From: a virus
IMG/VR virus record: IMGVR_UViG_3300017917_001030
Location: 32,001 to 96,000 of that record
Direction: 5' to 3' (one strand)
DNA length: 64,000 bases
The translations under genes and the position numbers were made by a program. The notes below the pieces were generated by a model, which was not told the DNA's origin, did not search any database, and was given only the letters and a program-made list of their open reading frames with translations. Shown here piece after piece: positions 5,444 to 53,039 of the stretch; within the stretch, counting starts at the first letter, position 1; the number at the start of each line of letters is the position of its first letter.

Positions 5444-5451
5444 TATAAATA
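5444..5451 (+). promoter_or_regulatory. T4-type late promoter upstream of sugar cluster
   Basis: TATAAATA. Confidence 0.75.
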
Positions 5452-5486
5452 ATTTAGATATTATAATTACATAATAAGGAACTGAA

Positions 5487-6494: not shown

Positions 6495-6501
6495 GGTTTT
6501 T

Positions 6502-11423: not shown

Positions 11424-11424
11424 T

Positions 11425-16583: not shown

Positions 16584-16585
16584 TA

Positions 16586-17356: not shown

Positions 17357-18300
17357 AAAATAAAATTGTTTACATTACAGGATGCTTAGGTTTCATTGGA
17401 TACCATGTGACCAAAAAATGTTTAGATGCAGGCTTTTATGTTTTTGGTATAGATAAAAAGACATATGCCAGCAATCTAAATTTTCTCCCAGAACTTCTCA
17501 AATACCCACACTTTAAATTCTTAGAATCCGATATCAACGATATCGAGCGAATTTTAGATTGTGACTACTTTATTAATACTGCCGCAGAAACTCATGTGGA
17601 TAACAGTATTGTAAGTTCTGACGTTTTTCTAAAAAGCAACATTAACGGTGTTCATAAAATACTTGAGCTTATAAAGGTAATGCCTAAAGCTCGTAGACCG
17701 ACACTATTGCATTTTAGTACGGACGAAGTCTATGGAGATATCGCGTCTGGTTTCCATACAGAAACAGATCTACTAAAGCCTAGCAATCCTTATTCTGCAT
17801 CCAAAGCAGCCGCTGATATGTTGGTGCTTGCGTGGGCCAGAACATTTGATATTCCATACGTAATTGTTCGACCAACAAATAATTATGGTATAGGTCAGTA
17901 TGTTGAGAAGTTTATTCCTAAAGCAATTAAGAATCTCACACTAGGTAAACCTATAATGATGCATGACCATGGTACTCCTAGACGAACATGGTTACACGTT
18001 TCAGATACGGCATCTGCAATTATGACAATAGTTAATTCGGGTGTCAAAAATGAGATCTATAATATCTCTGGAAATTACGAAGAACAAAATATTGCTGTCG
18101 CACGAAAAATAATTGACGAATTTTACATTACAACAGAGTATGAATCTTTTATGGACTTTACAGAAAAGAGACAAGGCCAAGATGTAAGATACGCTATAGA
18201 TGACTCTAAATTAAAAGCATTGGGATGGGCACCTGTTGCTGATTTTGATACTGAGCTAAAAGCTATTGTAGATTATTATAAAGAAAATTTTATATGGTAA
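17353..18300 (+). CDS. rfbB: dTDP-glucose 4,6-dehydratase
   Basis: GCLGFIG, AAETHVDNS, STDEVYG, YSASK, NNYG. Confidence 0.92.
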   Translation: MKNKIVYITGCLGFIGYHVTKKCLDAGFYVFGIDKKTYASNLNFLPELLKYPHFKFLESDINDIERILDCDYFINTAAETHVDNSIVSSDVFLKSNINGVHKILELIKVMPKARRPTLLHFSTDEVYGDIASGFHTETDLLKPSNPYSASKAAADMLVLAWARTFDIPYVIVRPTNNYGIGQYVEKFIPKAIKNLTLGKPIMMHDHGTPRRTWLHVSDTASAIMTIVNSGVKNEIYNISGNYEEQNIAVARKIIDEFYITTEYESFMDFTEKRQGQDVRYAIDDSKLKALGWAPVADFDTELKAIVDYYKENFIW

Positions 18301-18992
18301 AGAAAATTATATCAATTAGCGTATGGGGAAATGATCCTCGCTATATTAAAGGTGCTGAAAGACAGTACGAATTAGCTAAAGAATTCTATCCCGATTGGAA
18401 GTTTAGAATCTATACTGACGATAGAAACAAATTTACGCATCTCAAGGATGCCATGATTGTAGAAGTCACTGACGGTAGTTATGGTATGTACTGGAGATTC
18501 GGCGCAATGTTTGAGGACAGCGAGAACATTGTTATTGTCAGAGATTCTGATAGTAGAATAACTGAGCGAGAAGCGAGAGCTGTTAACGAATGGTTGGAAT
18601 CAGATAAAAAGTTTCATACATTCAGAGATCACGATGCACATTATGAATTTCCTATCATAGGTTGTGCATTTGGTTATAAAGGACGCTTTGATCTTGATAC
18701 GTTTTATCGTATGTTAGATTATAGAAAACGCCTGGACAAATATCTCGGAGATCAACTATTCTTAAGGGATATAATTTATCCTTTGGTTGAAAATAATATG
18801 TTGGTACATTCGATGCATGAAGGATGGTTCGGGGAGACACGAAAACAATTAGTCAATCCTTATGACTTCTGCGGCAACGGATATGATGAGAATGATATGC
18901 CTTTGTATCCACCCACACTTGCAGAATGTAACGGATTCGAACCAAGCAAAGTTTCACCTGAGTTTAAGTTCAACAAAGGTGCACTTAAATGA
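18294..18992 (+). CDS. Putative glycosyltransferase-like protein
   Basis: KKIISISVWG, RDSDSR (DxD), FRDH, DQLFL. Confidence 0.6.
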   Translation: MVKKIISISVWGNDPRYIKGAERQYELAKEFYPDWKFRIYTDDRNKFTHLKDAMIVEVTDGSYGMYWRFGAMFEDSENIVIVRDSDSRITEREARAVNEWLESDKKFHTFRDHDAHYEFPIIGCAFGYKGRFDLDTFYRMLDYRKRLDKYLGDQLFLRDIIYPLVENNMLVHSMHEGWFGETRKQLVNPYDFCGNGYDENDMPLYPPTLAECNGFEPSKVSPEFKFNKGALK

Positions 18993-19789
18993 AAAGCTAT
19001 TTTATCGTACCTGTATTCAATAAAGAATTTTTAATTGCAGATGTTTATCTAGGAATTGTTAATTCTGTTACACCCGGTTCCGACTACAAAATAATTTTTA
19101 TTATAGATGGATGTACAGACAATAGTGAGAACATCATTAGAAGTTATAATAATGAAAATGTAATTATATTGCGCGCCGATGATGTACATGAGATACTAAG
19201 TTTGAATATGGGTCTTAACTATATCAAAGACAATCTTGACCCACAATCTGGCGATTTAGTATTTACAGTGCAAGATGACGTTGTCTTGCAGCAACCTAGT
19301 ATTGATAAAGCATTTGAAGGTCTATTCAAAGAATATCCAGACTTAGGTTATGTCAGTATGCGACTTGGTGCTACAATACACGGAAACGCTGACGGCATAT
19401 TTGAATCTGATTTAGTCGAATCTGAATTCGGTCATTGGAAACAACTTGGTATGAATCATTATAGTATGGTTCCATACAGCGCAATAGTAATTAAAGATAT
19501 TGCAGTAAGAAGTCCTACTTGTATGTTATGGGATAGATATGCAGAAGCCGGATTCTATGATGAGAATTTGGCTCCATGTGGTTATGATTGTCATGATATG
19601 AGTATTCGCATGAATAAGCTAGGTTATCGTAATGCAGTATTCGGTCTTAGATACAGAAGTGATGTTGAATGGGGTGGCATGAGAATGAATCCAGATACAA
19701 AGATTAATTCTAGATTCGGTGATATCTACGATAGGAATCGAAAATATCTTGTTACAAAGCATAGTGATTATTTTGAAGGTAAACGATGA
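18989..19789 (+). CDS. GT2 glycosyltransferase
   Basis: IVPVFN, DGCTDNS, QDD, GFYDE. Confidence 0.85.
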   Translation: MKSYFIVPVFNKEFLIADVYLGIVNSVTPGSDYKIIFIIDGCTDNSENIIRSYNNENVIILRADDVHEILSLNMGLNYIKDNLDPQSGDLVFTVQDDVVLQQPSIDKAFEGLFKEYPDLGYVSMRLGATIHGNADGIFESDLVESEFGHWKQLGMNHYSMVPYSAIVIKDIAVRSPTCMLWDRYAEAGFYDENLAPCGYDCHDMSIRMNKLGYRNAVFGLRYRSDVEWGGMRMNPDTKINSRFGDIYDRNRKYLVTKHSDYFEGKR

Positions 19790-20523
19790 AATATGAAGAT
19801 ATGACAATAGATCAACTAAGTAAAGAAGAAGTTGAATCTATTAAGGATAGAAATGTTCTTTATAACTTATTTAAGAACTCCTATCAAAATTTACCAGATG
19901 AAGTTAAACAACATCGAGAATATTTTACCCAAGAAGGTAGAGGCTTCGGTGAAGATGCATTTCACGCAATGTGGTATTACATTTTCAAACACTATCAACC
20001 TAAACAAATTTTAGAGATTGGTGTGTTTAGAGGACAAACTCTATCATTGTTTCAGTTGCTAGGGAATCTGTTTAATATAGATGTTAATGTAGTTGGTATT
20101 TCTCCAATGGCATCTATTGGCGATTCTAAATCTAATTATGTTGATATAGATTACGAAGCAGACATACTACAGAACTTTGACCAATTTAATCTAAAGCATC
20201 CTAAACTTGTTCGCGCATTTTCTGCAGATGCTAATGCGAGATATGAGATTAAAACAAATAATTGGGATCTAATTTACATAGATGGAAATCACGATTATAT
20301 TAATGTGTTGATTGACTACTTTAATTGTGTGGATACTCTAAACCAAACAGGTATTATTGTGTTAGATGATTCTAGTCTTTATACAGACTTTAATGTCGAA
20401 GGTGCATTTAGAGGCCATGAGGGTCCATCGACTGTAGTACGAGATATTGTTAGCAAAGAGCTTGATAATTTTATTTCGGTTGGTCATAATAATTGTTTTA
20501 GAATTCCTCCGTATGAAGAATAA
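19786..20523 (+). CDS. Class I SAM methyltransferase (Methyltransf_24-like)
   Basis: LEIGVFRG, DLIYIDGNH, GIIVLDD. Confidence 0.85.
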   Translation: MKYEDMTIDQLSKEEVESIKDRNVLYNLFKNSYQNLPDEVKQHREYFTQEGRGFGEDAFHAMWYYIFKHYQPKQILEIGVFRGQTLSLFQLLGNLFNIDVNVVGISPMASIGDSKSNYVDIDYEADILQNFDQFNLKHPKLVRAFSADANARYEIKTNNWDLIYIDGNHDYINVLIDYFNCVDTLNQTGIIVLDDSSLYTDFNVEGAFRGHEGPSTVVRDIVSKELDNFISVGHNNCFRIPPYEE

Positions 20524-21232
20524 AGTAACAGTAATTACAGCAACAACAGGTTCTCCGTATCTAAGAAAAAATTTAGAATCTGTTGCTGCTCAAACATATG
20601 GCGACGTTCAACATCTTGTTTTTGTTGACGGTGAACACCATATGGATAAAGTTAAACCGCAGTTGGATGGAATAAATGCATCGGTTATAGTTTTACCATA
20701 CGCAACAGGCATTGAACAATACAACGGGCATAAGATGTATGCTGCGGGAACATATCTTGCGAAAGGTGATTACATCTGCTATTTGGATGAGGATAATTGG
20801 ATCGATCCGAACCATGTGGAAAGTCTAATGGCAGTAGCTGACGAAAATAGTTATGCCTGCTCGCTTAGAAAGATAGTAGATTCTGATGGCAAATATATTT
20901 GCAACGATGATTGCGAAAGTCTTGGAAATTGGATTTCGGTTATCAACGACTACTTTGTTGATGTAAACTGTTTCTTTTTTCCTAAACGACTTGCACTACA
21001 ACTAACACCATTATGGTATAGACGTGCAAGACACCCTGATGATCAACCTGAGGTCGATCGTCTATTGACATATACTCTGAGAGAAAATAAAATAGAGTGT
21101 AAGGTAAGTGGTCTGTATACTGTAAACTACAGAGCAGGCAACAGATCAGATTCGGTTCAAGCCCGGTTTTTCTTACAGGGCAATGAAATTATGAAACAAC
21201 GATATAATGGAGTTTTACCATGGGCGAAATAG
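20513..21232 (+). CDS. GT2 glycosyltransferase
   Basis: LESVAAQTY, VFVDG, YICYLDEDNW. Confidence 0.85.
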   Translation: MKNKVTVITATTGSPYLRKNLESVAAQTYGDVQHLVFVDGEHHMDKVKPQLDGINASVIVLPYATGIEQYNGHKMYAAGTYLAKGDYICYLDEDNWIDPNHVESLMAVADENSYACSLRKIVDSDGKYICNDDCESLGNWISVINDYFVDVNCFFFPKRLALQLTPLWYRRARHPDDQPEVDRLLTYTLRENKIECKVSGLYTVNYRAGNRSDSVQARFFLQGNEIMKQRYNGVLPWAK

Positions 21233-43423: not shown

Positions 43424-43497
43424 ACCCGGTTAGCTCAAAGGTAGAGCACACGACTGATAATCGTGAGACAGAGGATCGTTACCTCTACTGGGTACCA
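43424..43497 (+). tRNA. tRNA-Ile(GAT)
   Basis: Cloverleaf, loop CTGATAA, CCA; T-loop ATCGTTA. Confidence 0.88.
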
Positions 43498-43569
43498 TAT
43501 AAAAACACATTACGGCAACCTGCCTGAGGGAGAGGATACCGAACTAGTGTCGGGTAGTGTGTTTCTATA
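43498..43569 (+). ncRNA. Long-stem element type B, copy 1
   Basis: TATAAAAACACATTA ... TAGTGTGTTTCTATA. Confidence 0.55.
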
Positions 43570-43577
43570 TAGTTTAT

Positions 43578-43654
43578 GCTCGGTTCGTCTAGCGGTCCAG
43601 GACAACGGCCTTTCACGTCGTAGATCACGGGTTCAAATCCCGTACCGAGTACCA
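43578..43654 (+). tRNA. tRNA-Glu(TTC)
   Basis: Loop CTTTCAC, CCA. Confidence 0.92.
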
Positions 43655-43660
43655 CAAATT

Positions 43661-43745
43661 GGAGGTGTAGGAAAATTGGTAACCCCAGCGGACTGTAAAT
43701 CCGCCGCCCCTGGCACTACTTGTTCGACTCAAGTCACCTCCACCA
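43661..43745 (+). tRNA. tRNA-Tyr(GTA)
   Basis: Loop CTGTAAA, variable arm, CCA. Confidence 0.92.
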
Positions 43746-43750
43746 TATTA

Positions 43751-43859
43751 AGGATGCGAACAGCAATCTTTTTTAACTTTAAGCCAAACGAGTGGTCCGG
43801 TTCGATTCCGGCTTGTGGTGTAATGGTAGCATACCCGTCAAAAGTAAAAAGGCATCCTG
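43751..43859 (+). ncRNA. Y-RNA-like element A1 (T-arm then D-arm)
   Basis: AGGATGC-GAA-CAGCAA ... GCATCCTG; CCGG-TTCGATT-CCGG followed by GTGT-AATGGTA-GCAT. Confidence 0.7.
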
Positions 43860-43867
43860 TTAATAAT

Positions 43868-43945
43868 GGCTAGGTGGCAGAGTGGTCCAATGCAGCGGAT
43901 TGCAAATCCGTAAAGTCGTCAGTTCGAATCTGACTCTAGCTTCCA
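43868..43945 (+). tRNA. tRNA-Cys(GCA)
   Basis: Loop TTGCAAA, U73, CCA. Confidence 0.92.
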
Positions 43946-43957
43946 ACAAAAAAGTGC

Positions 43958-43985
43958 TTGACTTTTTTAGTACAGGCATTATAAT
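43958..43985 (+). promoter_or_regulatory. Sigma70-type promoter
   Basis: TTGACT-16 nt-TATAAT. Confidence 0.7.
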
Positions 43986-44136
43986 AAGTACATAAATTAA
44001 TAACACGCCTCGCAGCGTTATTAAACTAGTGTTAGCTCTGCTAATTACTAGCGCAAATATAAACGGTGCATCAACGATGTGCTTTCGGTATCCGCGATAG
44101 AGATACGGCTAAAGTTCGTAATGCCAAAAGTATTTA

Positions 44137-44211
44137 GGTCTCAAAGTGTTCATGGACGCACGCAAGCCTGTCACGCTTGAAGAAGGGGATCGTTACCCCT
44201 TGGGACCGCCA
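44137..44211 (+). tRNA. tRNA-Asp(GTC)
   Basis: Loop CTGTCAC, G73, CCA; T-loop ATCGTTA. Confidence 0.88.
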
Positions 44212-44214
44212 AGA

Positions 44215-44330
44215 TTTAGTAAGTGCTGTTTACAGCAACCGTGTCACAAGTCTAGGGTTGAGGCTCTAGTTTAGTATGTTTACATACACCGTGTTGCAAG
44301 TGAAGGGTTGAGGCTCTTCCTTACTAAATA
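44215..44330 (+). ncRNA. Tandem-motif ncRNA
   Basis: Closing stem TTTAGTAAG/CTTACTAAA; two copies of ACCGTGTnnCAAGTnnAGGGTTGAGGCTCT. Confidence 0.55.
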
Positions 44331-44350
44331 TTTTTATCTCAAAGTTTTAT

Positions 44351-44425
44351 TCCGGAGTAGCACAGCGGTAGTGCAGTTGACTGTTAATCAATTGGTCGTA
44401 GGTTCGATCCCTGCCTCCGGAGCCA
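44351..44425 (+). tRNA. tRNA-Asn(GTT)
   Basis: Loop CTGTTAA, CCA. Confidence 0.95.
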
Positions 44426-44430
44426 GTTAT

Positions 44431-44506
44431 GCGGGTGTAATTCAGTTGGTAGAATGCTTCCTTGCCAAGGAAGATGTCGAGAGTTCGAGTCTCTTCGCCC
44501 GCTCCA
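44431..44506 (+). tRNA. tRNA-Gly(GCC)
   Basis: Loop TTGCCAA, U73, CCA. Confidence 0.95.
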
Positions 44507-44511
44507 GTTTT

Positions 44512-44571
44512 AGGATAGTAACAGCAATCAAAAAGCATACATTTGTAACTGTAAAAGCAAACTCTATCCTG
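44512..44571 (+). ncRNA. Y-RNA-like element A2
   Basis: AGGATAG-TAA-CAGCAA ... CTATCCTG; internal TACA-TTTGTAAC-TGTA. Confidence 0.65.
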
Positions 44572-44581
44572 TTATTTTTTA

Positions 44582-44658
44582 GCCCCGGTGACGGAATTGG
44601 TATACGTGTTGGTCTTAGAAACCAAATTTTAGGAGTTCGAGTCTCCTCTGGGGCACCA
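44582..44658 (+). tRNA. tRNA-Leu(TAG), short variable loop
   Basis: Loop CTTAGAA, A73, CCA; 77 nt. Confidence 0.85.
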
Positions 44659-44661
44659 AGT

Positions 44662-44828
44662 TTTGTAAGTGTAGATGTTGAGAAAGCATGTATAGGCATA
44701 TATGTGTGAGGCGGATATGAAACCCCGACAAGTAACAACTAGTACTACGTACCTCTAACCAGTCCGCGGCTTATCTAGAAAATACTGGTAAAATGGTTCC
44801 GAATGAGGGAGGCGGAACTACTTACAAA
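44662..44828 (+). ncRNA. Putative structured ncRNA
   Basis: Closing stem TTTGTAAGT/ACTTACAAA; internal ACCAGT/ACTGGT and GTTCCG/CGGAAC. Confidence 0.45.
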
Positions 44829-44877
44829 TTCATTCTCGCTTTGACTTATGGCGTACAATAGGATAAATTATAAGTCA

Positions 44878-44943
44878 TTTTTAAAGTACATTATGAAAAG
44901 AATTCCGAGATAAATCGGTAGGTAACATAGTGTATTTTAAAAA
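44878..44943 (+). ncRNA. Long-stem element type B, divergent copy
   Basis: TTTTTAAAGTACATTA ... TAGTGTATTTTAAAAA. Confidence 0.45.
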
Positions 44944-44945
44944 TT

Positions 44946-45021
44946 GGGGCCATAGCTCATCTGGGAGAGCGCCTGTTTTGCAAGCAGGAGGCGGTCGGTT
45001 CGAGTCCGACTGGTTCCACCA
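44946..45021 (+). tRNA. tRNA-Ala(TGC)
   Basis: G3:U70, loop TTTGCAA, CCA. Confidence 0.95.
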
Positions 45022-45025
45022 AATT

Positions 45026-45100
45026 GCCTGGATAGCTCAGGGGTAGAGCGTCTCCCTTACAAGGAGAGGGTCCGCGGTTCGAAACCGTGTCCAGGTACCA
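45026..45100 (+). tRNA. tRNA-Val(TAC)
   Basis: Loop CTTACAA, CCA. Confidence 0.95.
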
Positions 45101-45105
45101 ATCAT

Positions 45106-45182
45106 CGGGGTGTAGCGCAGCCTGGTAGCGCATCTGCTTTGGGAGCAGGAGGTCGTGAGTTCGAGTCCCACCACCCCGACCA
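45106..45182 (+). tRNA. tRNA-Pro(TGG)
   Basis: Loop TTTGGGA, CCA. Confidence 0.95.
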
Positions 45183-45197
45183 TCATAAGGAAATGCT

Positions 45198-45464
45198 ATG
45201 TCATATGTACCATTGAGAGATAAAGTTCTGTTGGAAGAAACAGAAAAAGCTACAGTCACAGAAAGCGGAATTTATTTAGGTGACGCTCGTGCAGATAACA
45301 ATACACGACCAGGTCGTGTTCTTGCAGTAGGTCCAGAAGTGTCCGAAATCAAAGCAGGAGATATTGTTTACGTGATGTGGCAAAAATCTCATATCATCAA
45401 AGAAGGCGATAAATTGCTTGCAATCGTAGGCATAGATGATATAATTGCAGTATTAGAAGATTAA
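45198..45464 (+). CDS. GroES-like co-chaperonin
   Basis: PLRDKVLL, TESGIYL, GRVLAVGP, DIIAV. Confidence 0.88.
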   Translation: MSYVPLRDKVLLEETEKATVTESGIYLGDARADNNTRPGRVLAVGPEVSEIKAGDIVYVMWQKSHIIKEGDKLLAIVGIDDIIAVLED

Positions 45465-45465
45465 T

Positions 45466-45542
45466 GTGACCATAGCTCAGTAGGATAGAGCATCTGCCTT
45501 CTAAGCAGACGGTCGGGGGTTCGAATCCCTCTGGTCACGCCA
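45466..45542 (+). tRNA. tRNA-Arg(TCT)
   Basis: Loop CTTCTAA, CCA. Confidence 0.95.
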
Positions 45543-45547
45543 GTTTT

Positions 45548-45611
45548 AGGATAGTAACAGCAACCACAATTTACACTAGACTTATAATCTAACCAGTAAA
45601 ATTCTATCCTG
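45548..45611 (+). ncRNA. Y-RNA-like element A3 displaying an anticodon-type loop
   Basis: AGGATAG-TAA-CAGCAA ... CTATCCTG; internal TAGA-CTTATAA-TCTA. Confidence 0.68.
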
Positions 45612-45615
45612 TTAT

Positions 45616-45691
45616 TCCCTCTTCGCCAAGTTGGTAAGGCATCGGATTTTGATTCCGACATTCGGTGGTTCGAGTCCATCAGGGGGAGCCA
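45616..45691 (+). tRNA. tRNA-Gln(TTG)
   Basis: U1:A72, loop TTTTGAT, G73, CCA. Confidence 0.92.
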
Positions 45692-45697
45692 ATTAGT

Positions 45698-45776
45698 TGG
45701 GGCGTAGTGTACTCTGGTATTAGCACACTGGTCTTTGAAACCAGTAGATTGGGTTCGATTCCCGACGCCCTTACCA
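45698..45776 (+). tRNA. Second tRNA with TTG anticodon (atypical Gln)
   Basis: Loop CTTTGAA; U1:U72 mismatch, A73, CCA. Confidence 0.75.
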
Positions 45777-45790
45777 TATTATTTTTAAAC

Positions 45791-45857
45791 GGAGAACGAC
45801 ATGAAACGAGGTAAACTCTAGTGTCATCCCAGGTCCCGTATTGGTCTTGGATGGCAC
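45791..45857 (+). other. Minigene (MKRGKL*) plus hairpin
   Basis: GGAG SD, ATG 45801, TAG 45819-21, stem GTGTCATCC/GGATGGCAC. Confidence 0.45.
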
Positions 45858-45882
45858 GTAAAATCAATTTAATTACGACCAT

Positions 45883-45959
45883 CCCTTGCTGGCGTCAACG
45901 GTTAGCGTACCGGACTCTTAATCCGCGAGGTCTCAGTTCGAATCTGAGGCAAGGGACCA
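45883..45959 (+). tRNA. tRNA-Lys(CTT)
   Basis: Loop CTCTTAA, CCA. Confidence 0.88.
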
Positions 45960-45963
45960 ATAT

Positions 45964-46038
45964 GGGATTGAAGCTTTAAGGTGAAGCAACGGACTTTTAA
46001 TCCGTAGAACTGGGATCGTCGGCCCAGCAGTCCTACCA
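45964..46038 (+). tRNA. tRNA-Lys(TTT)
   Basis: Loop CTTTTAA, CCA; atypical T-loop ATCGTCGG. Confidence 0.82.
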
Positions 46039-46125
46039 TATAAAAACACATTAAACGCCCACCCATCGTGGTTGATGGCCGGTAGTTGCGTCTCTAACCA
46101 AGCCGCTTCATAGTGTGTTTCTATA
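46039..46125 (+). ncRNA. Long-stem element type B, copy 2
   Basis: Same 15-nt arms as 43498-43569, different interior. Confidence 0.55.
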
Positions 46126-46200
46126 TGGTAGTTTAACTCCGTGGTTAACTCCGCCAGGCCGATACGCTCTATAGAGCGTGTCGAAGCAAGGAGCTACCAT
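46125..46200 (+). ncRNA. Putative structured RNA
   Basis: ATGGTAGTTT/GAGCTACCAT stem; CGATACGCTC-TATA-GAGCGTGTCG hairpin. Confidence 0.4.
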
Positions 46201-46217
46201 AACCTAAAAAGATAAAA

Positions 46218-46409
46218 ATGTATATTTCACAAATAGCAAGAATCAACGATCATTATATGGGTCGTGATCGAGAAAAAGTTTATGTTACTTTGAAAGATGA
46301 AAACGGAGCTACTTATACCAGATATGAGCAGTACCTTTTCACGCCTTACAACAAGCAAGGTAAACTAGAAGAATTACAAAAAGGTAATACCATAGATTTA
46401 AAAGCTTAG
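46218..46409 (+). CDS. Small hypothetical protein
   Basis: 63-aa ORF filling a gap between RNA genes. Confidence 0.5.
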   Translation: MYISQIARINDHYMGRDREKVYVTLKDENGATYTRYEQYLFTPYNKQGKLEELQKGNTIDLKA

Positions 46410-46484
46410 CGGTCCTTAGTTCAATGGATAGAATGCCATGCTTCGAACTTGGAGATGTGGGTTCGATTCCTGCAGGACCGGCCA
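46410..46484 (+). tRNA. tRNA-Arg(TCG)
   Basis: Loop CTTCGAA, CCA. Confidence 0.85.
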
Positions 46485-46488
46485 ATTT

Positions 46489-46564
46489 GCCCTGGTGACG
46501 GAACGGTATACGTGTCGGATTCAAAATCCGAATTCTGAGAGTTCGAATCTCTCCTGGGGCACCA
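46489..46564 (+). tRNA. tRNA-Leu(CAA), short variable loop
   Basis: Loop TTCAAAA, A73, CCA; 76 nt. Confidence 0.85.
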
Positions 46565-46566
46565 AT

Positions 46567-46642
46567 GGTATTCTTAGTGTAGTGGTCTGCACACGACGTT
46601 GTGACCGTCGTAGTATGAGTTCGATCCTCATAGAATACCCCA
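46567..46642 (+). tRNA. tRNA-His(GTG)
   Basis: G-1:C73, loop TTGTGAC, CCA. Confidence 0.92.
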
Positions 46643-46651
46643 AACAATTAT

Positions 46652-46727
<76 letters not shown>

Positions 46728-46732
46728 AATAT

Positions 46733-46822
46733 GGAAGCGTGGTAGAGTGGTCTAATACGTCAGCCTTGAAAACTGAAGATTCTTAATCGGGTCCGTGAGT
46801 TCGAATCTCACCGCTTCCACCA
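46733..46822 (+). tRNA. tRNA-Ser(TGA)
   Basis: Loop CTTGAAA, long variable arm, CCA. Confidence 0.92.
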
Positions 46823-46921
46823 GTATTCTTGCAAGAAGAAAACACTGCGCCCTGAGCCTCACCGGGCGGTATGTCAGTTACAAAACAGTAGGGTAAGAGT
46901 CCCAAGGAGAGGCACGAATAC
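46823..46921 (+). ncRNA. Putative structured RNA
   Basis: Closing stem GTATTCTTGC/GCACGAATAC; internal CGCCC/GGGCG. Confidence 0.4.
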
Positions 46922-46924
46922 AAT

Positions 46925-47015
46925 AGTGAGATGCGAGAGTTGGTCTAATCGGCCTCCCTGGAAAGGAGTGCATCGTGCAAACGGTACTAGGGTTCGAATC
47001 CCTATCTCACTGCCA
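46925..47015 (+). tRNA. tRNA-Ser(GGA)
   Basis: Loop CTGGAAA, long variable arm, G73, CCA. Confidence 0.9.
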
Positions 47016-47017
47016 AC

Positions 47018-47105
47018 GGAAGATTAACTGAGTAGGACTCAGCACTGATTCGAAACCAGTTGGACTCAGAAATGGGTTGGGGATCGAGACCTCAGTCTTC
47101 CACCA
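47018..47105 (+). tRNA. Atypical tRNA-Ser(CGA) with Sec-like long D stem
   Basis: Loop TTCGAAA; D stem CTGAGT/ACTCAG; variable arm; CCA. Confidence 0.72.
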
Positions 47106-47107
47106 GG

Positions 47108-47136
47108 TTGACACTAAAATCAAAAGATGTTATAAT
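47108..47136 (+). promoter_or_regulatory. Sigma70 promoter
   Basis: TTGACA-17 nt-TATAAT. Confidence 0.85.
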
Positions 47137-47156
47137 TAATTTTTAAGGAGTTAAAG

Positions 47157-47678
47157 ATGCCAGCAGTATTCATTGTTAGTGATACGCACTTCGGGCATGC
47201 TGGTGTCTGCAAATTCTTACGTGAAGATGGCACCAAGCTTAGACCATGGGACTCACCTGAAGAAATGGATGAGGCAATGGTTAAGGCCTGGAACGAAACA
47301 GTTAGACCTAATGATAAAGTTTATCACCTCGGCGACGTAGTTATTAATCGCAAAGCTCTACACATTCTTGGTAGACTGAATGGTGATAAAGTTCTTATCA
47401 AAGGCAACCATGATATTTTTAAGTTAGAGGATTATACTCAATACTTCAGAGATATTCGTGCATATCATGTAATGAACAACTACATTCTTTCCCACATTCC
47501 TGTTCACGCATCGTCAAAGGGAAGGTTTGCAGGTAACATTCATGGGCACCTACACTCTAACAAAGTAATGACTATGGACGGTAACTTTGTTGATCCATGG
47601 TATCAGTGTGTTTGTGTAGAGCAAACTGATTTTAGGCCTATTACATTTGAAAATGTATTGAAACGATTTGAAAAATAA
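47157..47678 (+). CDS. Calcineurin-like metallophosphoesterase
   Basis: SDTHFGH, HLGD, GNHD, SHIP, HGHLH. Confidence 0.9.
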   Translation: MPAVFIVSDTHFGHAGVCKFLREDGTKLRPWDSPEEMDEAMVKAWNETVRPNDKVYHLGDVVINRKALHILGRLNGDKVLIKGNHDIFKLEDYTQYFRDIRAYHVMNNYILSHIPVHASSKGRFAGNIHGHLHSNKVMTMDGNFVDPWYQCVCVEQTDFRPITFENVLKRFEK

Positions 47679-47768
47679 GGAAGACGGGCAGGACGGTAAT
47701 GCAGCGGATTGCTAATCCGTAGACCGTAGTAATACGGTCAGTGGGTTCGACTCCCACGTCTTCCACCA
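47679..47768 (+). tRNA. tRNA-Ser(GCT)
   Basis: Loop TTGCTAA, long variable arm, CCA. Confidence 0.92.
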
Positions 47769-47773
47769 GTTTT

Positions 47774-47887
47774 AGGATACTTGCAGCAAATTCACAGCAA
47801 TGAAAGCCGTGTGTTTTAGGTTCGATTCCTAAATTCCCCGTTAGGAGAATTAGCTCAATTGGTAGAGCAACGAAAAAGAGTATCCTG
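47774..47887 (+). ncRNA. Y-RNA-like element A4 with circularly permuted tRNA core
   Basis: AGGATAC-TTG-CAGCAA ... GTATCCTG; T-arm, loop-closed acceptor stem, TA, D-arm. Confidence 0.8.
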
Positions 47888-47895
47888 TTATTTTT

Positions 47896-47987
47896 GCCAG
47901 CGAGACTGGGTAGTCAGAGAGGTCTTATAAACCTTTTAGCGCCAGATTAGCGTTCTTGAGAGTGTTCGAGTCACTCCGCTGGTACCA
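47896..47987 (+). tRNA. Atypical tRNA with TAT anticodon (Ile?) and long variable arm
   Basis: Loop CTTATAA; 4-nt D loop; canonical T arm; CCA. Confidence 0.7.
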
Positions 47988-47991
47988 TTTT

Positions 47992-48066
47992 GGTGATATG
48001 ACGTAGACGGATGCGTAGCGGTTTCATAAGCCGACGAGGTTGGATCGTTACCAACTATCACCACCA
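47992..48066 (+). tRNA. tRNA-Met(CAT), elongator-like
   Basis: Loop TTCATAA, CCA; T-loop ATCGTTA. Confidence 0.82.
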
Positions 48067-48074
48067 TATATAAT

Positions 48075-48151
48075 GCGTCCTTAGCATAACTGGAGAATGC
48101 ACTGGTTTACGAAGCCAGGGGATGGGAGTTCGAATCTCTTGGGACGCACCA
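48075..48151 (+). tRNA. tRNA-Arg(ACG)
   Basis: Loop TTACGAA, CCA. Confidence 0.92.
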
Positions 48152-48157
48152 TATAAA

Positions 48158-48231
48158 GCTCCTATAGTTAAGTGGTATAACGTATCCTTGGTAAGGATAA
48201 ATTCTGAGTTCAATTCTCGGTGGGAGCACCA
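48158..48231 (+). tRNA. tRNA-Thr(GGT)
   Basis: Loop TTGGTAA, CCA. Confidence 0.92.
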
Positions 48232-48246
48232 ACAAAGGAGTTACTT

Positions 48247-48426
48247 ATGAGCGGCAAAGGTTCCAAACCAAGACCATTCAGTGTAGATAGTGATACCTAC
48301 AGTAATAATTGGAATGCAATTTTCGGTAAGAAAAAAGACAATACTGGTACAGATAAGAATGAATATTATGATGTACTAAGTACAGAAGAATCATTAACAG
48401 AAAACGAAAAAGATAAAACAGAATAA
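48247..48426 (+). CDS. Small phage protein (GKGSKPRP N-terminus)
   Basis: AAGGAG SD; MSGKGSKPRPFSV...NWNAIF. Confidence 0.65.
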   Translation: MSGKGSKPRPFSVDSDTYSNNWNAIFGKKKDNTGTDKNEYYDVLSTEESLTENEKDKTE

Positions 48427-48430
48427 TTAT

Positions 48431-48504
48431 GCATCCCTGATGTAATGGCAGCATGACGGTCTCCAAAACCGTTCGTCGGGGTTCGAGTCCCTGGGGGTGT
48501 GCCA
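48431..48504 (+). tRNA. tRNA-Trp(CCA)
   Basis: Loop CTCCAAA, G73, CCA. Confidence 0.92.
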
Positions 48505-48584
48505 ATATTCGTGAGCAGGTTTAATTTCGATCTCAGCGGCCCTGACGATCAAAAATTAAAACCTTTTTATTAATACCCTGACGG

Positions 48585-48613
48585 TTGACAGAGTCATTGA
48601 AAGACATTATAAT
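48585..48613 (+). promoter_or_regulatory. Sigma70 promoter
   Basis: TTGACA-17 nt-TATAAT. Confidence 0.85.
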
Positions 48614-48633
48614 AATGGTATAGTAAGTTAAAT

Positions 48634-48711
48634 GCGGGTAGACAGGACAAGGGGCGTCCAGCAGCCTTCCAAGCTGAAGATCGCGGAGTTCGACTCTCCC
48701 TACCCGCTCCA
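48634..48711 (+). tRNA. tRNA-Gly(TCC), apparent 8/4 fold
   Basis: Loop CTTCCAA, U73, CCA; GCGGGTAG/CTACCCGC with a 4-bp T stem. Confidence 0.82.
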
Positions 48712-48729
48712 ATTTTGTTAGGTGGTACT

Positions 48730-49209
48730 ATGAGAAAGCAAATTAACATCGAAGAAATCAAGTCGTTTATCGACGCCCAGAGTCCCGAAACCAAAATTTA
48801 CATTGGTGCGGATTCAGAACGTTACAAACGTGATGGTGTTTGGTATGCCGACTATACTCTTGCTGTTGTAGTACACATCGACGGTCGTCATGGTTGTAAG
48901 ATTTTCGGTGAAGTTCAAACCGAAATCGACTATGACAAAAAGAACAGTCGCCCTGCAATGCGACTAATGAACGAAGTTTACAAAGTATCAGAACTATATC
49001 ACAAGCTTGTTGATGTTGTTGGTGATCGAGAAGTCCAAATACATCTTGACATCAACCCGCAAGAATGTTATAATAGTTCAATAGTAATTCAACAAGCCGT
49101 AGGTTATATCAAAGGAACTTGTAACATTATTCCGATGGTTAAACCGAAAGCTTTTGCAGCAAGCTATGCCGCAGACCGACTAAAGGAAGTCTTGGCGCTT
49201 GCAGCTTGA
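48730..49209 (+). CDS. RNase H-like YkuK (DUF458) family protein
   Basis: IYIGADS, RLMNEV, IHLDIN, AASYAAD. Confidence 0.8.
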   Translation: MRKQINIEEIKSFIDAQSPETKIYIGADSERYKRDGVWYADYTLAVVVHIDGRHGCKIFGEVQTEIDYDKKNSRPAMRLMNEVYKVSELYHKLVDVVGDREVQIHLDINPQECYNSSIVIQQAVGYIKGTCNIIPMVKPKAFAASYAADRLKEVLALAA

Positions 49210-49215
49210 GAATAA

Positions 49216-49290
49216 GCCGAAGTAGCACAACGGTAGTGCAGCGCTCTTGTAAAGCGAAGGTTGAGGGTTCGATTCCTTTCTTCGGCACCA
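49216..49290 (+). tRNA. tRNA-Thr(TGT)
   Basis: Loop CTTGTAA, CCA. Confidence 0.93.
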
Positions 49291-49296
49291 GTTATT

Positions 49297-49523
49297 AGGA
49301 TGAGTACAGCAGTCACAAAACGAAAATAAAGTACTGCCCATTCACGGAGGACCACCGTAAGGTGTAATTTTATGGGCTATGGGGCATACCTGAAATAAAA
49401 TAGCGATGCTGGTTAACCAGATAGACTAACATACTCGAATGTATGTTTGATTTCAGTGGGGAATTCGCCCGAAAGGGAGCACTGGGGTTCAAGAACCAAG
49501 TTAATACTAACCCGACCATCCTG
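49297..49523 (+). ncRNA. Y-RNA-like element A5 (long, 227 nt)
   Basis: AGGATGA-GTA-CAGCAG ... CATCCTG; multiple internal hairpins including GNRA loops. Confidence 0.6.
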
Positions 49524-49534
49524 CTTATATTATT

Positions 49535-49631
49535 AGAATAGGTTCAGCAAACATCTAGCGGTGTAATACCCGCATTATAGGAAGGTGAGTTTCGAGTTTT
49601 CACCATAATCAAAAAGTAGAAAACTATTCTG
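49535..49631 (+). ncRNA. Y-RNA-like element A6
   Basis: AGAATAG-GTT-CAGCAA ... CTATTCTG (compensatory change); T-loop-like GGTGAG-TTTCGAG-TTTCACC. Confidence 0.65.
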
Positions 49632-49675
49632 ATGTATAGGTTAAAATAAATCATAACCTGAAAGTGAGAAAAAAT

Positions 49676-51112
49676 ATGAATACTTTTGTTGAAGCAGTAG
49701 CAAATCAAGAAGCCCGTACCACTAACGGTATGAAGGCTCGTAAGTCCACCGCATCCGCTGTTGTAGATTTGTTCTACAATATTGGTGCATCCCGTGGCAA
49801 GAATGTTATCCCCGGCTTTACTGCCGCACTTGCAGAGAACCGTGACTTGGCACTTCGTGTTGCAGCATGGGCTCGTGATGTGCGTGGTGGTGCAGGTGAA
49901 CGACAACTCTTCCGTGACATTCTTGTCTACTTGGAAAAGTACGACCCCGAAGCAGCTAAGGCTCTTTTGGCTAAGGTACCTGAGCTGGGTCGTTGGGACG
50001 ACTTGTTCGTCTTTAAGACCAAGGAGCTAAAGGAAGCAGCATACACTATGTTGGGTGACGCATTGCGTGAACGCAACGGTCTGGCTGCTAAGTGGACTCC
50101 TCGTCAAGGCCCTATTGCTTTGGAAATCCGTAAGTTCTTCGGCATGTCGCCTAAGTTCTATCGTAAGTCCTTGGTTAACCTAACTAAGGTCGTTGAACAA
50201 GATATGTGTGCTAAGAACTGGGATAACATCAACTTCTCTCATGTTCCTTCGGTTGCGGCATCCCGTTACAAGAAGGCATTTAACCGTAACACTGAAAAGT
50301 ATGCAGAATACGTAAAGTCGTTGGTTAAGGGAGATAACCCGGAAGTTAAGGTCAACGCAGGCGCAGTATATCCATATGATGTAGTGAAGGGAATCATCCC
50401 TAACTCTTATGTCAAAAGCGCTTTTGACAAGACAGAGCTTGACCTAATTGAAAAGCAATGGGAAGCTCTTCCTAATTACGTAGGCGATGCTAACATTCTT
50501 CCTTTGGTTGACGTTAGCGGGTCGATGTCTTGTCCTGTTGGTGGCTATGGTTCTAAGAATAAGATGTCCTGTATGGATGTTGCTGTTTCGTTGGGACTTT
50601 ACCTTGCGGACAAGAACAAGGGCAAGTTCAAGGATACTTTCTTGACATTTAGCTCTTCGCCAGAACTACTTACTCTAAAGGGTAATATTGTTCAAAAGGT
50701 TACACAAATGGTTGCTTCTAAGTGGGGAATGTCCACCAACCTACACGCAGCATTTTCAAAGATTCTGTCTGTAGCGAAGAAAGGTAATGTTCCGCAAGAA
50801 GAAATGCCAGATATGGTATTGATCTTGTCCGACATGCAATTCAATGCTTGCATTGAGCATGACGACAGTGCAATCAAAATGATTGCTCGTAAGTACGAAG
50901 AAGCAGGCTACACCATGCCTAAGGTTGTATTCTGGAACTTGAATGCTGCATATGGTAACACACCAGTGAAGTTTGACAAGTCTGGTACTGCTTTGGTATC
51001 TGGTTTTAGCCCATCTATTGTTAAGCCTTTGTTGGCAGGCAACCTTGAAACTTTCACCCCAGAAAGTGTCATGTTGCAGACCATCATGCAAGACCGTTAC
51101 GCGGTATTGTAA
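49676..51112 (+). CDS. DUF2828-type protein: helical TROVE/Ro60-like N-terminus plus VWA domain
   Basis: T.NG, RDVRGGAGER, GRWDDL, AAKWTPR, MIDAS VDVSGSM, ILSDMQF, FWNL, LVSGFS. Confidence 0.8.
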   Translation: MNTFVEAVANQEARTTNGMKARKSTASAVVDLFYNIGASRGKNVIPGFTAALAENRDLALRVAAWARDVRGGAGERQLFRDILVYLEKYDPEAAKALLAKVPELGRWDDLFVFKTKELKEAAYTMLGDALRERNGLAAKWTPRQGPIALEIRKFFGMSPKFYRKSLVNLTKVVEQDMCAKNWDNINFSHVPSVAASRYKKAFNRNTEKYAEYVKSLVKGDNPEVKVNAGAVYPYDVVKGIIPNSYVKSAFDKTELDLIEKQWEALPNYVGDANILPLVDVSGSMSCPVGGYGSKNKMSCMDVAVSLGLYLADKNKGKFKDTFLTFSSSPELLTLKGNIVQKVTQMVASKWGMSTNLHAAFSKILSVAKKGNVPQEEMPDMVLILSDMQFNACIEHDDSAIKMIARKYEEAGYTMPKVVFWNLNAAYGNTPVKFDKSGTALVSGFSPSIVKPLLAGNLETFTPESVMLQTIMQDRYAVL

Positions 51113-51208
51113 GTGCTCAATTCTGACAGCACGTTAAACACGGTCAGACGTCGATCTTAAATGACTGCGCCGGCACTACGCAAGGTGTCTCCGTACTCGG
51201 TAAGCGGA
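51113..51208 (+). ncRNA. Structured 3' element with H-type pseudoknot
   Basis: GTGCT/AGCAC interleaved with TCTGAC/GTCAGA; terminal TCCG...CGGA hairpin. Confidence 0.45.
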
Positions 51209-51237
51209 ACTAATTTCAATTTTGGTTAACCTATTGG

Positions 51238-51266
51238 TTGACGAAAATTTGCCAAGGCTATATAAT
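51238..51266 (+). promoter_or_regulatory. Sigma70 promoter
   Basis: TTGACG-17 nt-TATAAT. Confidence 0.75.
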
Positions 51267-51277
51267 AAGTGTTTTAT

Positions 51278-51360
51278 GCGGGTGTGGTGAAATAGGTAGA
51301 CACAGGAGACTTAAAATCTCCCGCTTCGGCGTGCTGGTTCGAGTCCGGTCACCCGTACCA
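51278..51360 (+). tRNA. tRNA-Leu(TAA)
   Basis: Loop CTTAAAA, variable arm, CCA. Confidence 0.95.
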
Positions 51361-51373
51361 TTATTCTAAAACT

Positions 51374-51838
51374 ATGAAAGATAATATGTCACTAACTTTA
51401 CAAAATATTGAAAGTGCTTTGGCGGGTGAGTCTATGGCTCATATCAAGTATCGTTACTTTGCCAAAATTGCACGTGAGGAAGGCTTCGAAGAAGTCGCAA
51501 AACATTTTGAACATACTGCAGATCAAGAAATTCTTCATGCTTGGGGTCACCTTGAGCTGTTGATTGGTAAGCCTAATACCAAAGAATGCCTTGAAAAAGC
51601 TATTGCAGGTGAGACTTATGAGTATACTGAAATGTATCCTAAGTTCGAGCATCAGGCAAAAGCAGAATCTAATATCGAAGCAGTTAAAGAGTTCAACGAA
51701 CAAGGTCGTGAATCCTTGCAGCATGCTCAAGAATTTAAAGCAGTATTGGCAAAAGCAGAAAAGCGCTTTGCTGCTCTTAAGGGTGTCGAGAAGCGTCATG
51801 CTGAAGCATACCAAAAAGTTCTTGGAGGTCTAGCATGA
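51374..51838 (+). CDS. Rubrerythrin (diiron domain; start may be 51386)
   Basis: AGESMA..KY..FA..A..EG, E..HA, GETYEYTEMYP. Confidence 0.9.
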   Translation: MKDNMSLTLQNIESALAGESMAHIKYRYFAKIAREEGFEEVAKHFEHTADQEILHAWGHLELLIGKPNTKECLEKAIAGETYEYTEMYPKFEHQAKAESNIEAVKEFNEQGRESLQHAQEFKAVLAKAEKRFAALKGVEKRHAEAYQKVLGGLA

Positions 51839-51990
51839 GCGATAATCAATACGAATACAAGCATGTCTGTCCTGTTTGTGACTATGTTCATGAGGACAAT
51901 GAAACTACTCCATTCGATCAAATGCCTGCTGATTATGTTTGCCCAGCATGCGGTGTCGAAAAAGATTGGTTTGATAAACGAGTTGCATGA
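51835..51990 (+). CDS. Rubredoxin
   Basis: CPVCDYVH ... PADYVCPACGVEKDWF; ATGA coupling on both sides. Confidence 0.88.
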   Translation: MSDNQYEYKHVCPVCDYVHEDNETTPFDQMPADYVCPACGVEKDWFDKRVA

Positions 51991-52382
51991 TTGATTGTCT
52001 AGTCATCGGTGATTCTATTGCCGTAGGTGTTCAGCAGTTTAGGCAAGAGTGTGCGATCTATGCTAAGGTAGGTATTAATAGCAGAGATTGGAACAACAAG
52101 TTTATCGGCAAAGACCTACGTGCAAATACAGTTATTATTAGCCTGGGGTCTAACGACTCCGGCAATATTAAGACTGCTGCAGAGCTAAACGAACTAAGAC
52201 AATCGGTAACATCCAAAAAAGTAGTTTGGATTTTGCCTTCTAATAATAGTGACAAACGAGACATCGTAAAATTCATAGCAGAAAAATACGGTGATATTGT
52301 GTTGGGTGTAAATCAACTATCCAAAGACGGTGTGCATCCAACAGTCGCTGGTTATAAAGAATTAGCAAATAATACAAAATAG
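51987..52382 (+). CDS. SGNH/GDSL hydrolase
   Basis: IGDSIA, SLGSND, DGVHP. Confidence 0.85.
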   Translation: MIDCLVIGDSIAVGVQQFRQECAIYAKVGINSRDWNNKFIGKDLRANTVIISLGSNDSGNIKTAAELNELRQSVTSKKVVWILPSNNSDKRDIVKFIAEKYGDIVLGVNQLSKDGVHPTVAGYKELANNTK

Positions 52383-52387
52383 TTTTT

Positions 52388-52464
52388 GCGCCTGTAGCTC
52401 AGTTGGTTAGAGCAGTGGACTCATAATCCATTGGTCGCGGGTTCAAGTCCCTCCGGGCGCACCA
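52388..52464 (+). tRNA. tRNA(CAT), probably Ile2 (lysidine type)
   Basis: Loop CTCATAA; body resembles ileX-type tRNAs; CCA. Confidence 0.85.
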
Positions 52465-52479
52465 TTTAACGAGGTAATT

Positions 52480-52689
52480 ATGTCCAATCAAGTAACATCA
52501 GAAGATGCAGTCAACCAAGTAGGCAATCGTTACGATCTTGTTTTGATCGCAGCACGCCGAACACGTGAATTGAAGCGTGGGCATAAGCCATTGATTGATT
52601 CAAAGCATAAGCCAGCAGTAACGGCTCTAAATGAAATTGAACAAGGTAAAATTGGCAGAGATTACCTGTTAAAATTGAGAAAACGGTAA
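52480..52689 (+). CDS. rpoZ: RNA polymerase omega subunit
   Basis: VTSEDAV..VGNRYDLVLIAARR.REL, KPAVTAL.EI..GKI. Confidence 0.9.
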   Translation: MSNQVTSEDAVNQVGNRYDLVLIAARRTRELKRGHKPLIDSKHKPAVTALNEIEQGKIGRDYLLKLRKR

Positions 52690-52787
52690 ACTAAGCTATT
52701 TAGCTTTATCGTCATCTATATTATAATAAGCATGTGGTGAGTTAGCCGCAATCGTTATTTTTTTTTTTATTTTAATGGAGATTTACA

Positions 52788-53039
52788 ATGGTTAAAAATC
52801 GTGTTTTGAAAGTTCTTGAGTCTGGTCGTCAATTTACACCCGCTCAATTGGCAGGTCTTACCGGTGCATCTGAGGACAGCATTCGTCCTCGTATTAGCGA
52901 ACTTCGCGCCGAAGGTCACGCAATCTATACTAACACTACAAAGAATGGTAAGGTTGCATATCGTCTAGGTACTCCTAGCCGTCGCATGGTTGCCGCAGCT
53001 TACGCAAGCATGGGCAGCGACGCTTTCACTCGTATGTGA
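52788..53039 (+). CDS. Winged-helix HTH DNA-binding protein
   Basis: FTPAQLAGLTG...RISELRAEG, YRLGTPSR. Confidence 0.75.
   Translation: MVKNRVLKVLESGRQFTPAQLAGLTGASEDSIRPRISELRAEGHAIYTNTTKNGKVAYRLGTPSRRMVAAAYASMGSDAFTRM

Follow-up and report, generated by a model that had tools for sequence, protein, structure and literature searches.

An uncultured T4-like myovirus carries, at the end of a large tRNA island, a gene for a homologue of RNA polymerase's omega subunit (RpoZ). In the encoded protein, here termed phage omega, the residues that correspond to Arg3 and Arg52 of Escherichia coli omega, both of which face ppGpp at site 1 of the polymerase, are glutamine and asparagine. The gene is assigned by sequence comparison to a large omega family present in tRNA-rich contigs of uncultured phages, and within this family omegas with a predicted intact site 1 coexist with omegas that have lost its residues. 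A tentative explanation, held with somewhat less than even confidence, is that a functional phage omega would form a hybrid RNA polymerase with a weakened or dead site 1, and that elongation would be mainly affected. The gene (52480..52689, + strand) lies in a 64,000-nucleotide stretch of DNA, termed the window, which comprises bases 32001-96000 of a 130,602-bp IMG/VR virus record with an estimated completeness of 72%.

The phage omega protein is 69 amino acids long (MSNQVTSEDAVNQVGNRYDLVLIAARRTRELKRGHKPLIDSKHKPAVTALNEIEQGKIGRDYLLKLRKR) and opens with MSNQVTSEDAVNQVGNRYDLV. It scores 62.4 bits against PF01192, RNA_pol_Rpb6 (E 4.1e-17, cut-off 26), and 62.1 bits against the NCBIfam equivalog TIGR00690, rpoZ (cut-off 23.6). 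Among solved structures of bacterial RNA polymerase, 23 distinct omega chains match it at E <= 1e-3, the best of them at E 1.2e-13, and residues 4-68 align with the conserved core of these chains by HMMER. Such scores are far above chance, and the RpoZ homology that a first-pass annotation had read from the letters is borne out by all three comparisons.

The start codon at 52480 is fixed by the reading of the frame. Although the frame is open for 92 amino acids, the part upstream of 52480 falls within a tRNA-Met gene (52388-52464), and 52480 is the earliest ATG, GTG or TTG past the upstream stop. A ribosome-binding site, GAGG, is found by direct reading 5 nt before the ATG (52471..52474, +), and the protein has no second methionine. 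Because of these four features the start is secure, and MSNQVTSED, the beginning proposed earlier, is the sole possible N-terminus given the start codons available in frame.

Gene content shows the source to be a T4-like phage. PHROGs families in the record include the gp43 polymerase, gp45 clamp, gp44/62 clamp loader, RegA, UvsX and UvsY, as well as a gp41-type helicase, a gp46/47-type nuclease, terminase, portal, capsid, sheath and tube proteins and a gp55-like late sigma factor. The closest cultured gp43 proteins are those of cyanomyoviruses, with ∼50% identity. Neither Rpb1 (beta') nor Rpb2 (beta) domains, Rpb1_2 and Rpb2_6 included, were found in the 130.6-kb record, which represents 72% of the genome; MazG, zf-dskA_traR, RelA_SpoT and HD_4 domains were likewise not found in this record. 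As Rpb1 and Rpb2 are missing from this portion of the genome, phage omega appears to be an orphan subunit that would act solely with a host polymerase. No PHROGs v4 family corresponds to it (0 matches at 1e-5). Its matches in a protein atlas are to omega clusters only, and one of these has Uroviricota as the commonest taxon.

Other genes of this phage suggest glycan synthesis and 7-deazaguanine DNA modification. A long block at window positions 4235-21229 and upstream of it (locus L051) encodes putative sugar-nucleotide epimerases, aminotransferases and glycosyl-/fucosyltransferases, and the phage further has genes resembling QueE, QueD and GTP cyclohydrolase.

The tRNA island (43424..52464, +) consists of 31 tRNA genes, out of 32 in the window, and of conserved non-tRNA genes. 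The latter code for a PdeM-like phosphoesterase (47157-47678), for an RNaseH_like PF04308 protein (48715-49209) and, at 49664-51112, for a Ro/TROVE-like DUF2828/DUF7788 protein. The final tRNA of the array, tRNA-Met(CAT) (52388..52464, +), ends 15 nt before the omega start, which agrees with the earlier placing of the gene at the end of the tRNA region.

Omega is the last gene of a putative transcription unit. A sigma-70-like promoter, TTGACG-17-TATAAT, matches the consensus at 11 of 12 positions (51238..51266, +) and lies just upstream of tRNA-Leu(TAA) (51278..51360, +), the opening gene of the unit. Genes for a rubrerythrin (51374-51838, +), a rubredoxin (51835-51990, +) and an SGNH/GDSL-like hydrolase (51987-52382, +) follow, then tRNA-Met and omega. 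Downstream come a hairpin (52733-52750) and then a T run (52733..52775 in all, +), which are terminator-like for the omega transcript and are situated in the leader of the next gene. That gene encodes an 83-amino-acid winged-helix-like protein (52788..53039, +), whose HTH_11 score of 21.3 bits does not reach the cut-off, 25. The promoter is a candidate start for the unit: the scan found seven sites compared with 4.9 +/- 2.0 in shuffled sequences, and these are consensus matches, not proof of promoters. Loci L002-L007 and L015-L017 of clades A and B preserve the succession tRNA-Leu(taa), tRNA-Met(cat), omega, and tRNA-Met followed by omega is also found in L004, L005, L007-L010 and L015-L017.

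The gap between omega and the HTH-like gene (window 52690-52787; L002-L017, L060 and L069) has features of its own. In relatives it carries a near-perfect TTGACA-17-TATAAT promoter; the -35 element of the window's copy is degenerate. A 7-bp hairpin around AACCGCC is conserved in the same gap in relatives, and three of its pairs display compensatory changes. The hairpin is followed by a T-rich stretch and then by GAAGCGGTT, which might pair with the loop. This element looks like a leader or attenuator. A separate observation concerns the rubrerythrin, which recurs in 11 of 114 related loci (34 viral and the best 80 metagenome loci). Together with the rubredoxin it hints at relief of oxidative stress in a low-oxygen host or habitat.

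Relatives of phage omega are abundant. A word-indexed protein search yielded 175 of them and a scan of viral contigs 34 omega loci. In a metagenome scan with the family alignment, at least 545 of 598 candidate stretches encode relatives, and the best 80 were kept as loci. The 114 loci examined are the 34 viral and these best 80 metagenome loci of at least 545. tRNA genes are present at 33 of the 34 viral loci and at 69 of the best 80 metagenome loci; where the locus is 4 kb or longer, the fraction is 51/54. The omega start is no more than 60 nt from a tRNA on the same strand at 16 of the 34 viral and 31 of the best 80 metagenome loci. tRNA linkage is a family trait of phage omegas. Phage tail-collar proteins are found beside omega at the tRNA-free loci L019 and L082. 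A 'tRNA-island' omega was defined here by more than ∼55% identity to the window omega and a position in or adjoining a phage tRNA array; the window omega, with 31 tRNA genes upstream, belongs to this group.

The surroundings of omega are also partly conserved. At least one further gene is common to the window phage and 72 of the 114 loci (34 viral and the best 80 metagenome). On the same basis, and in the range of 60-80% identity, the PdeM-like phosphoesterase is found at 37 loci, the RNaseH_like PF04308 protein at 23 and the Ro/TROVE-like DUF2828/DUF7788 protein at seven. These three genes suggest a conserved tRNA-island module, perhaps one for RNA processing or repair. The 83-amino-acid HTH-like gene is downstream of omega in 21 of the 114 loci and is 75-88% identical.

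DNA nearly identical to that of the window was detected in sequencing runs of ten studies, one of which is possibly the source; their samples come from pond, aquaculture, wastewater, estuary, lagoon and freshwater habitats. In three other studies, contigs span omega intact; one is identical in the open reading frame, and two differ from it at five bases, which comprise two synonymous changes and the substitutions A25S and R67K (variant P0001).

Site 1 of RNA polymerase is formed by omega together with beta', whose partner residues are R362, R417, K615, I619 and D622. On the omega side, R3 and R52 face the phosphates of ppGpp, with R52 toward the 3′ diphosphate (preprint 10.1101/188680), and Ala2 and Arg3 touch the 5′ diphosphate (PMC13192712). 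The N-terminal MAR motif is a predictor of site-1 binding and is conserved across Alpha-, Beta-, Gamma- and Deltaproteobacteria (PMC6912228).

In the HMMER register, Asn3 of phage omega corresponds to E. coli Ala2, Gln4 to Arg3 and Val5-Thr6 to Val4-Thr5. The protein begins MSNQVT, and its N-terminus is one residue longer than that of E. coli and free of arginine, in agreement with the earlier statement that MAR is lacking. At the position of E. coli Arg52, within ALREIEEG, phage omega has asparagine (TALNEIEQG). The MAFFT register agrees with that of HMMER for both positions. Since R3 and R52 are both replaced, the case for an altered site 1 is stronger than one based on the missing MAR motif. 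A crippled site 1 in a hybrid of host core and phage omega is plausible on these residues. The omega and beta' of the host, whichever bacterium it is, may themselves lack site 1, and the substitutions would then be meaningless with respect to ppGpp.

The two site-1 positions were compared over the family. For this count 234 rows were reduced to 208 distinct sequences, after L118, P0121, the truncated P0050, P0058 and P0065, and alpha- and beta-type bacterial rows outside the core pattern had been left out. A canonical MAR start occurs with Arg52 in 82 of the 208 distinct sequences and without it in 13; another N-terminus occurs with Arg52 in four and without it in 109. Altered N-termini include MSNQ, which is that of the window clade, MT(A/S)RY, MN(K/N)Q, MNGR, MKGR, MSR, M(T/S)(E/Q)SR(A/V/I)RY and long extensions. 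In every one of the 18 distinct sequences that have glutamine at the Arg3 position, the Arg52 position is asparagine. By locus, MAR is retained at 33 of 113 classified phage-type loci (among the 34 viral and best 80 metagenome loci scanned), and 25 of the 33 also have Arg52. MAR and non-MAR loci are not distinguished by their GC content.

This coupling of MAR and Arg52 fits with the two residues forming one functional unit, although it is not statistically secured, as so short an alignment yields a tree with poor support. On the tree, the N-terminus changes at least 17 times and Arg52 at least 11 times. When relatedness is corrected for, the tree of ∼60 columns leaves two independent contrasts on supported branches (sign test p 0.5).

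Phage omega is under purifying selection and not in free decay. Comparison with four clade-A relatives gives pN values of 0.20-0.24 and pS values of 0.68-0.73, and MSNQ together with the asparagine is retained across clade A. A constraint on the new state can be argued because the altered N-terminus and the asparagine are conserved within each clade despite near-saturated synonymous sites. The nearest relatives carry MAR and R52, and the MAR-less state of the window omega is thus read as a secondary loss.

How phage omega might act can be outlined as follows. It would be made from the transcription unit of the tRNA island, probably early and by host sigma-70 RNA polymerase, and its mRNA would be freed from a tRNA-mRNA precursor through tRNA processing. 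By homology, the protein would most likely dock on host beta', either replacing host omega or alongside it; host beta' is the most likely partner because neither beta nor beta' is encoded in the 72% of the phage genome that the record covers. Site 1 of the resulting hybrid would be weakened or non-functional, given that R3 is replaced by Gln and R52 by Asn and that the N-terminus is one residue longer. The expected effect is a relief of the ppGpp-dependent slowing and pausing of elongating RNA polymerase, along with DksA-independent effects. Stable-RNA promoters would not be expected to become fully released; that outcome depends on site 2 and DksA. We infer the binding to beta', the displacement of host omega, the lost response to ppGpp and a benefit to the phage.

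Published work on ppGpp bears on this outline. Control of initiation is chiefly via site 2, and site 1 acts chiefly in elongation (PMC13192712); because of this division, and because DksA returns ppGpp sensitivity to polymerase that lacks omega and loss of rpoZ is mild, the likely consequence of the substitutions is relief of elongation and not release of tRNA promoters. A mutant RNA polymerase altered at site 1, including an omega delta2-5 deletion, bound ppGpp just ∼2-fold worse by DRaCALA (PMC7676912), so that loss of the omega contacts need not abolish ppGpp binding. A further point against the outline is that no second ppGpp-related gene turned up in the 72% of the genome covered by the record. 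Nor can ppGpp blinding be the general job of phage omegas, since MAR is kept at 33 of 113 loci, 25 of them with Arg52. The many loci with both MAR and R52 imply that the basic role of the family is something else, and the change in the window lineage could be relaxation.

This last point leads to a different account, in which the phage tops up omega and so keeps host RNA polymerase assembled, stable and biased toward the housekeeping sigma factor during tRNA and early transcription, and the changes at the N-terminus and Arg52 represent relaxation or drift. It is a possible account, though on the unlikely side. The retention of MAR and R52 at 25 of 113 loci and in 82 of 208 distinct sequences calls for a general role independent of ppGpp, and omega has been tied to the folding of beta' and to sigma competition (PMC5811629, PMC3147163, PMC3985657). 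Once R52 is gone the N-termini are very diverse (MSNQ, MTARY, MTSRY, MNKQ, MNGR, MKGR and MTESRAR), as relaxation predicts; however, the altered N-terminus and the asparagine are conserved in each clade where synonymous sites are near saturation. In addition, host RNA polymerase already has omega, and a top-up is a weak reason for a gene to be present in hundreds of contigs.

The first-pass annotation had proposed that this omega blunts the stringent response so that tRNA promoters stay on. In its literal form, a ppGpp-blind polymerase at stable-RNA promoters would let the phage tRNA promoters fire through the stringent response. Part of the proposal holds: the site-1 residues are lost, Arg52 as well as MAR, the linkage to tRNA genes is family-wide, and at most loci omega is in or at the end of a tRNA array. 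It also agrees with the finding that, in vitro and with no DksA present, ppGpp fails to inhibit RNA polymerase lacking omega (10.1101/188680). The part concerning promoters does not hold well. With DksA, the delta-omega polymerase regains ppGpp sensitivity, the phenotype of an rpoZ deletion in E. coli is mild, and stringent reprogramming is ascribed mainly to site 2 (10.1101/188680). Initiation is controlled principally through site 2 (PMC13192712) and DksA restores sensitivity, and for these reasons an omega swap alone is unlikely to keep tRNA promoters on. Furthermore, omegas with MAR and R52 are found equally often in tRNA arrays, for example with 21 tRNAs in L112, 12 in L122 and 25 in L020. 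Release of the promoters by this omega is thus quite improbable.

A docking function has also to be weighed. The rebuilt surface of omega may recruit a phage transcription factor, such as the 83-amino-acid winged-helix-like neighbour, with the loss of ppGpp contacts as a by-product. A regulator that acts via direct contact with omega is known, GafA of RcGTA (PMC9638019), and at 21 of 114 loci (34 viral and the best 80 metagenome) omega is succeeded by the HTH-like gene, with 75-88% identity. This gene has its own promoter and leader, however, and is absent from most omega loci of other clades; such recruitment is considered very improbable.

That the contig is chimeric or misclassified and the gene an rpoZ of bacterial origin is scarcely credible: contamination of phage collections does occur, as most of the eight matches to phage omega among 50,697 INPHARED records resemble enterobacterial or other cellular rpoZ, but omega is located 50 kb within a T4-like genome that is colinear, the synteny recurs in many contigs, bacterial rpoZ loci have spoT and no tRNA (0/12) where the phage loci show the opposite, and no close copy is found in any sampled bacterial genome.

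The cellular omegas that served as controls are clearly distinct. Omega matches at E <= 1e-5 were found in 381 of 401 sampled Pseudomonadota genomes, one of which (G384) is unpublished, and the 12 best Pseudomonadota omega matches are 48-60% identical to phage omega. In a sample of the gammaproteobacterial class, 0 of 400 genomes reach E <= 1e-15, and among ∼800 sampled proteobacterial genomes no omega has above 60% identity to phage omega. The matches listed from a scan of genome contigs include one distant alphaproteobacterial-type locus. In the tree, three gamma-type bacterial omegas separate with a support of 100 at distances of 2.7-3.2, compared with 0.7 or less for the nearest phage relatives. 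All 13 distinct bacterial rpoZ loci open with MAR(I/V)T(V/I)ED and carry ALREI. A SpoT-type HD domain is encoded just downstream of rpoZ in every bacterial row (L036-L049); this context is not seen in the genome of the window, where no HD_4 was found in the 130.6-kb record.

Four of the INPHARED records, MG065691.1, MG065686.1, OR845831.1 and OR851528.1, are named as Campylobacter, Escherichia and Salmonella phages. Their rpoZ scores are identical to those of Salmonella chromosome contigs that INPHARED also contains, and the rpoZ sequences in these four records are probably cellular DNA.

Of the core subunits of bacterial RNA polymerase, omega is the one least understood; the function best defined for it is the formation of ppGpp site 1. 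Phage omega is like proteobacterial RpoZ in family and core, with ∼50% identity over residues 4-68 to E. coli-type omegas and a short single domain. It differs in being located in a tRNA array without spoT downstream, in the extra N-terminal residue, and in having Gln at R3 and Asn at R52. Unlike the enterobacterial omega of 91 amino acids, the 69-amino-acid phage protein has no acidic C-terminal tail. The lack of MAR is shared with omegas such as those of Firmicutes, whose RNA polymerase is said to have no ppGpp binding at site 1, and predicts no site-1 binding (PMC6912228), but phage omega is of proteobacterial derivation and its loss is secondary.

Products of other mobile elements offer partial parallels. 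TraR, encoded on a conjugative plasmid, binds RNA polymerase in its secondary channel and mimics DksA and ppGpp (10.1101/188680). Phage omega is proposed to resemble it as a mobile-element product that rewires ppGpp/DksA control of host RNA polymerase; whereas TraR is an accessory factor of the site-2 region, phage omega would replace a core subunit and affect site 1. As in T4, the window phage relies on the host core polymerase, is proposed to change its properties and has a gp55-like late sigma factor. In PHROGs no phage of the T4 group has an omega family, however, and the window phage would swap a subunit instead of modifying the polymerase or adding a factor to it. Phage-encoded ribosomal proteins, reportedly described by Mizuno et al. 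in 2019, are similar in that a virus carries one small subunit of a large host machine and not the rest; in the present case the copied subunit belongs to RNA polymerase and is changed where a regulatory ligand binds. An rpoZ phage-resistance mutant of M. abscessus was considered as a parallel and set aside as not relevant, the resistance being attributed to surface changes (PMC8092298).

A literature search over article texts found no paper that describes a phage-encoded omega. In a pelagimyophage paper (PMC7029224) and a jumbo-phage paper (PMC7824862) the words 'omega' and 'rpoZ' are absent, and 'rpoZ' is absent from another jumbo-phage paper (PMC12619734), which has a single occurrence of 'omega'. 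New here are the second lost contact, Arg52, coupled with that of MAR, the coexistence of intact and lost site 1, the bacterial controls and the anatomy of the unit. If phage omega enters host RNA polymerase, subunit replacement would join the known phage takeovers of transcription and would be tied to the expression of large tRNA sets.

A wider hypothesis, and a rather doubtful one, is that large aquatic tRNA-island phages routinely swap this core subunit of host RNA polymerase for a ppGpp-competent (MAR and Arg52) or, in other lineages, a ppGpp-blind (Gln/Asn) version and in this way set the sensitivity of elongation to the alarmone. If true, we know of no earlier case in which a virus exchanges a core RNA polymerase subunit and so rewires control by a second messenger. 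The abundant natural phage omegas that have both ppGpp-facing arginines, or neither, represent ready separation-of-function variants. They could be used to probe site 1 in vivo, with elongation, pausing and repair set against initiation.

Several individual loci display further features. At L127 (3261-5586), a MAR-less relative of the window omega is followed by genes for a DSP-type phosphatase, an AAA_33 kinase, a phosphoesterase and a 196-amino-acid protein with HD_4 (58 bits), the fold that SpoT-type ppGpp hydrolases have; this is the only HD_4 gene among the 114 phage-type loci (34 viral and the best 80 metagenome). L087 and L119 are parts of one metagenome contig of 524,565 bp, with two different omegas that are separated by ∼310 kb and both lie in tRNA-rich surroundings; either the phage is huge and has two omega paralogues, or the assembly is chimeric. 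The MAR-type omega locus L020, with its 25 tRNAs, encodes a 254-amino-acid protein like the N-terminal part of alanyl-tRNA synthetase (7303-8064; tRNA-synt_2c 59.9 bits).

Some of the tRNAs predicted by ARAGORN are odd. In the window these are a 92-nt tRNA-Ile(tat) with the anticodon at position 31 (47896-47987) and a 79-nt second tRNA-Gln(ttg) with the anticodon at position 38 (45698-45776). A relative, L014, has a predicted 100-nt tRNA with the four-base anticodon ctcc (2403-2502).
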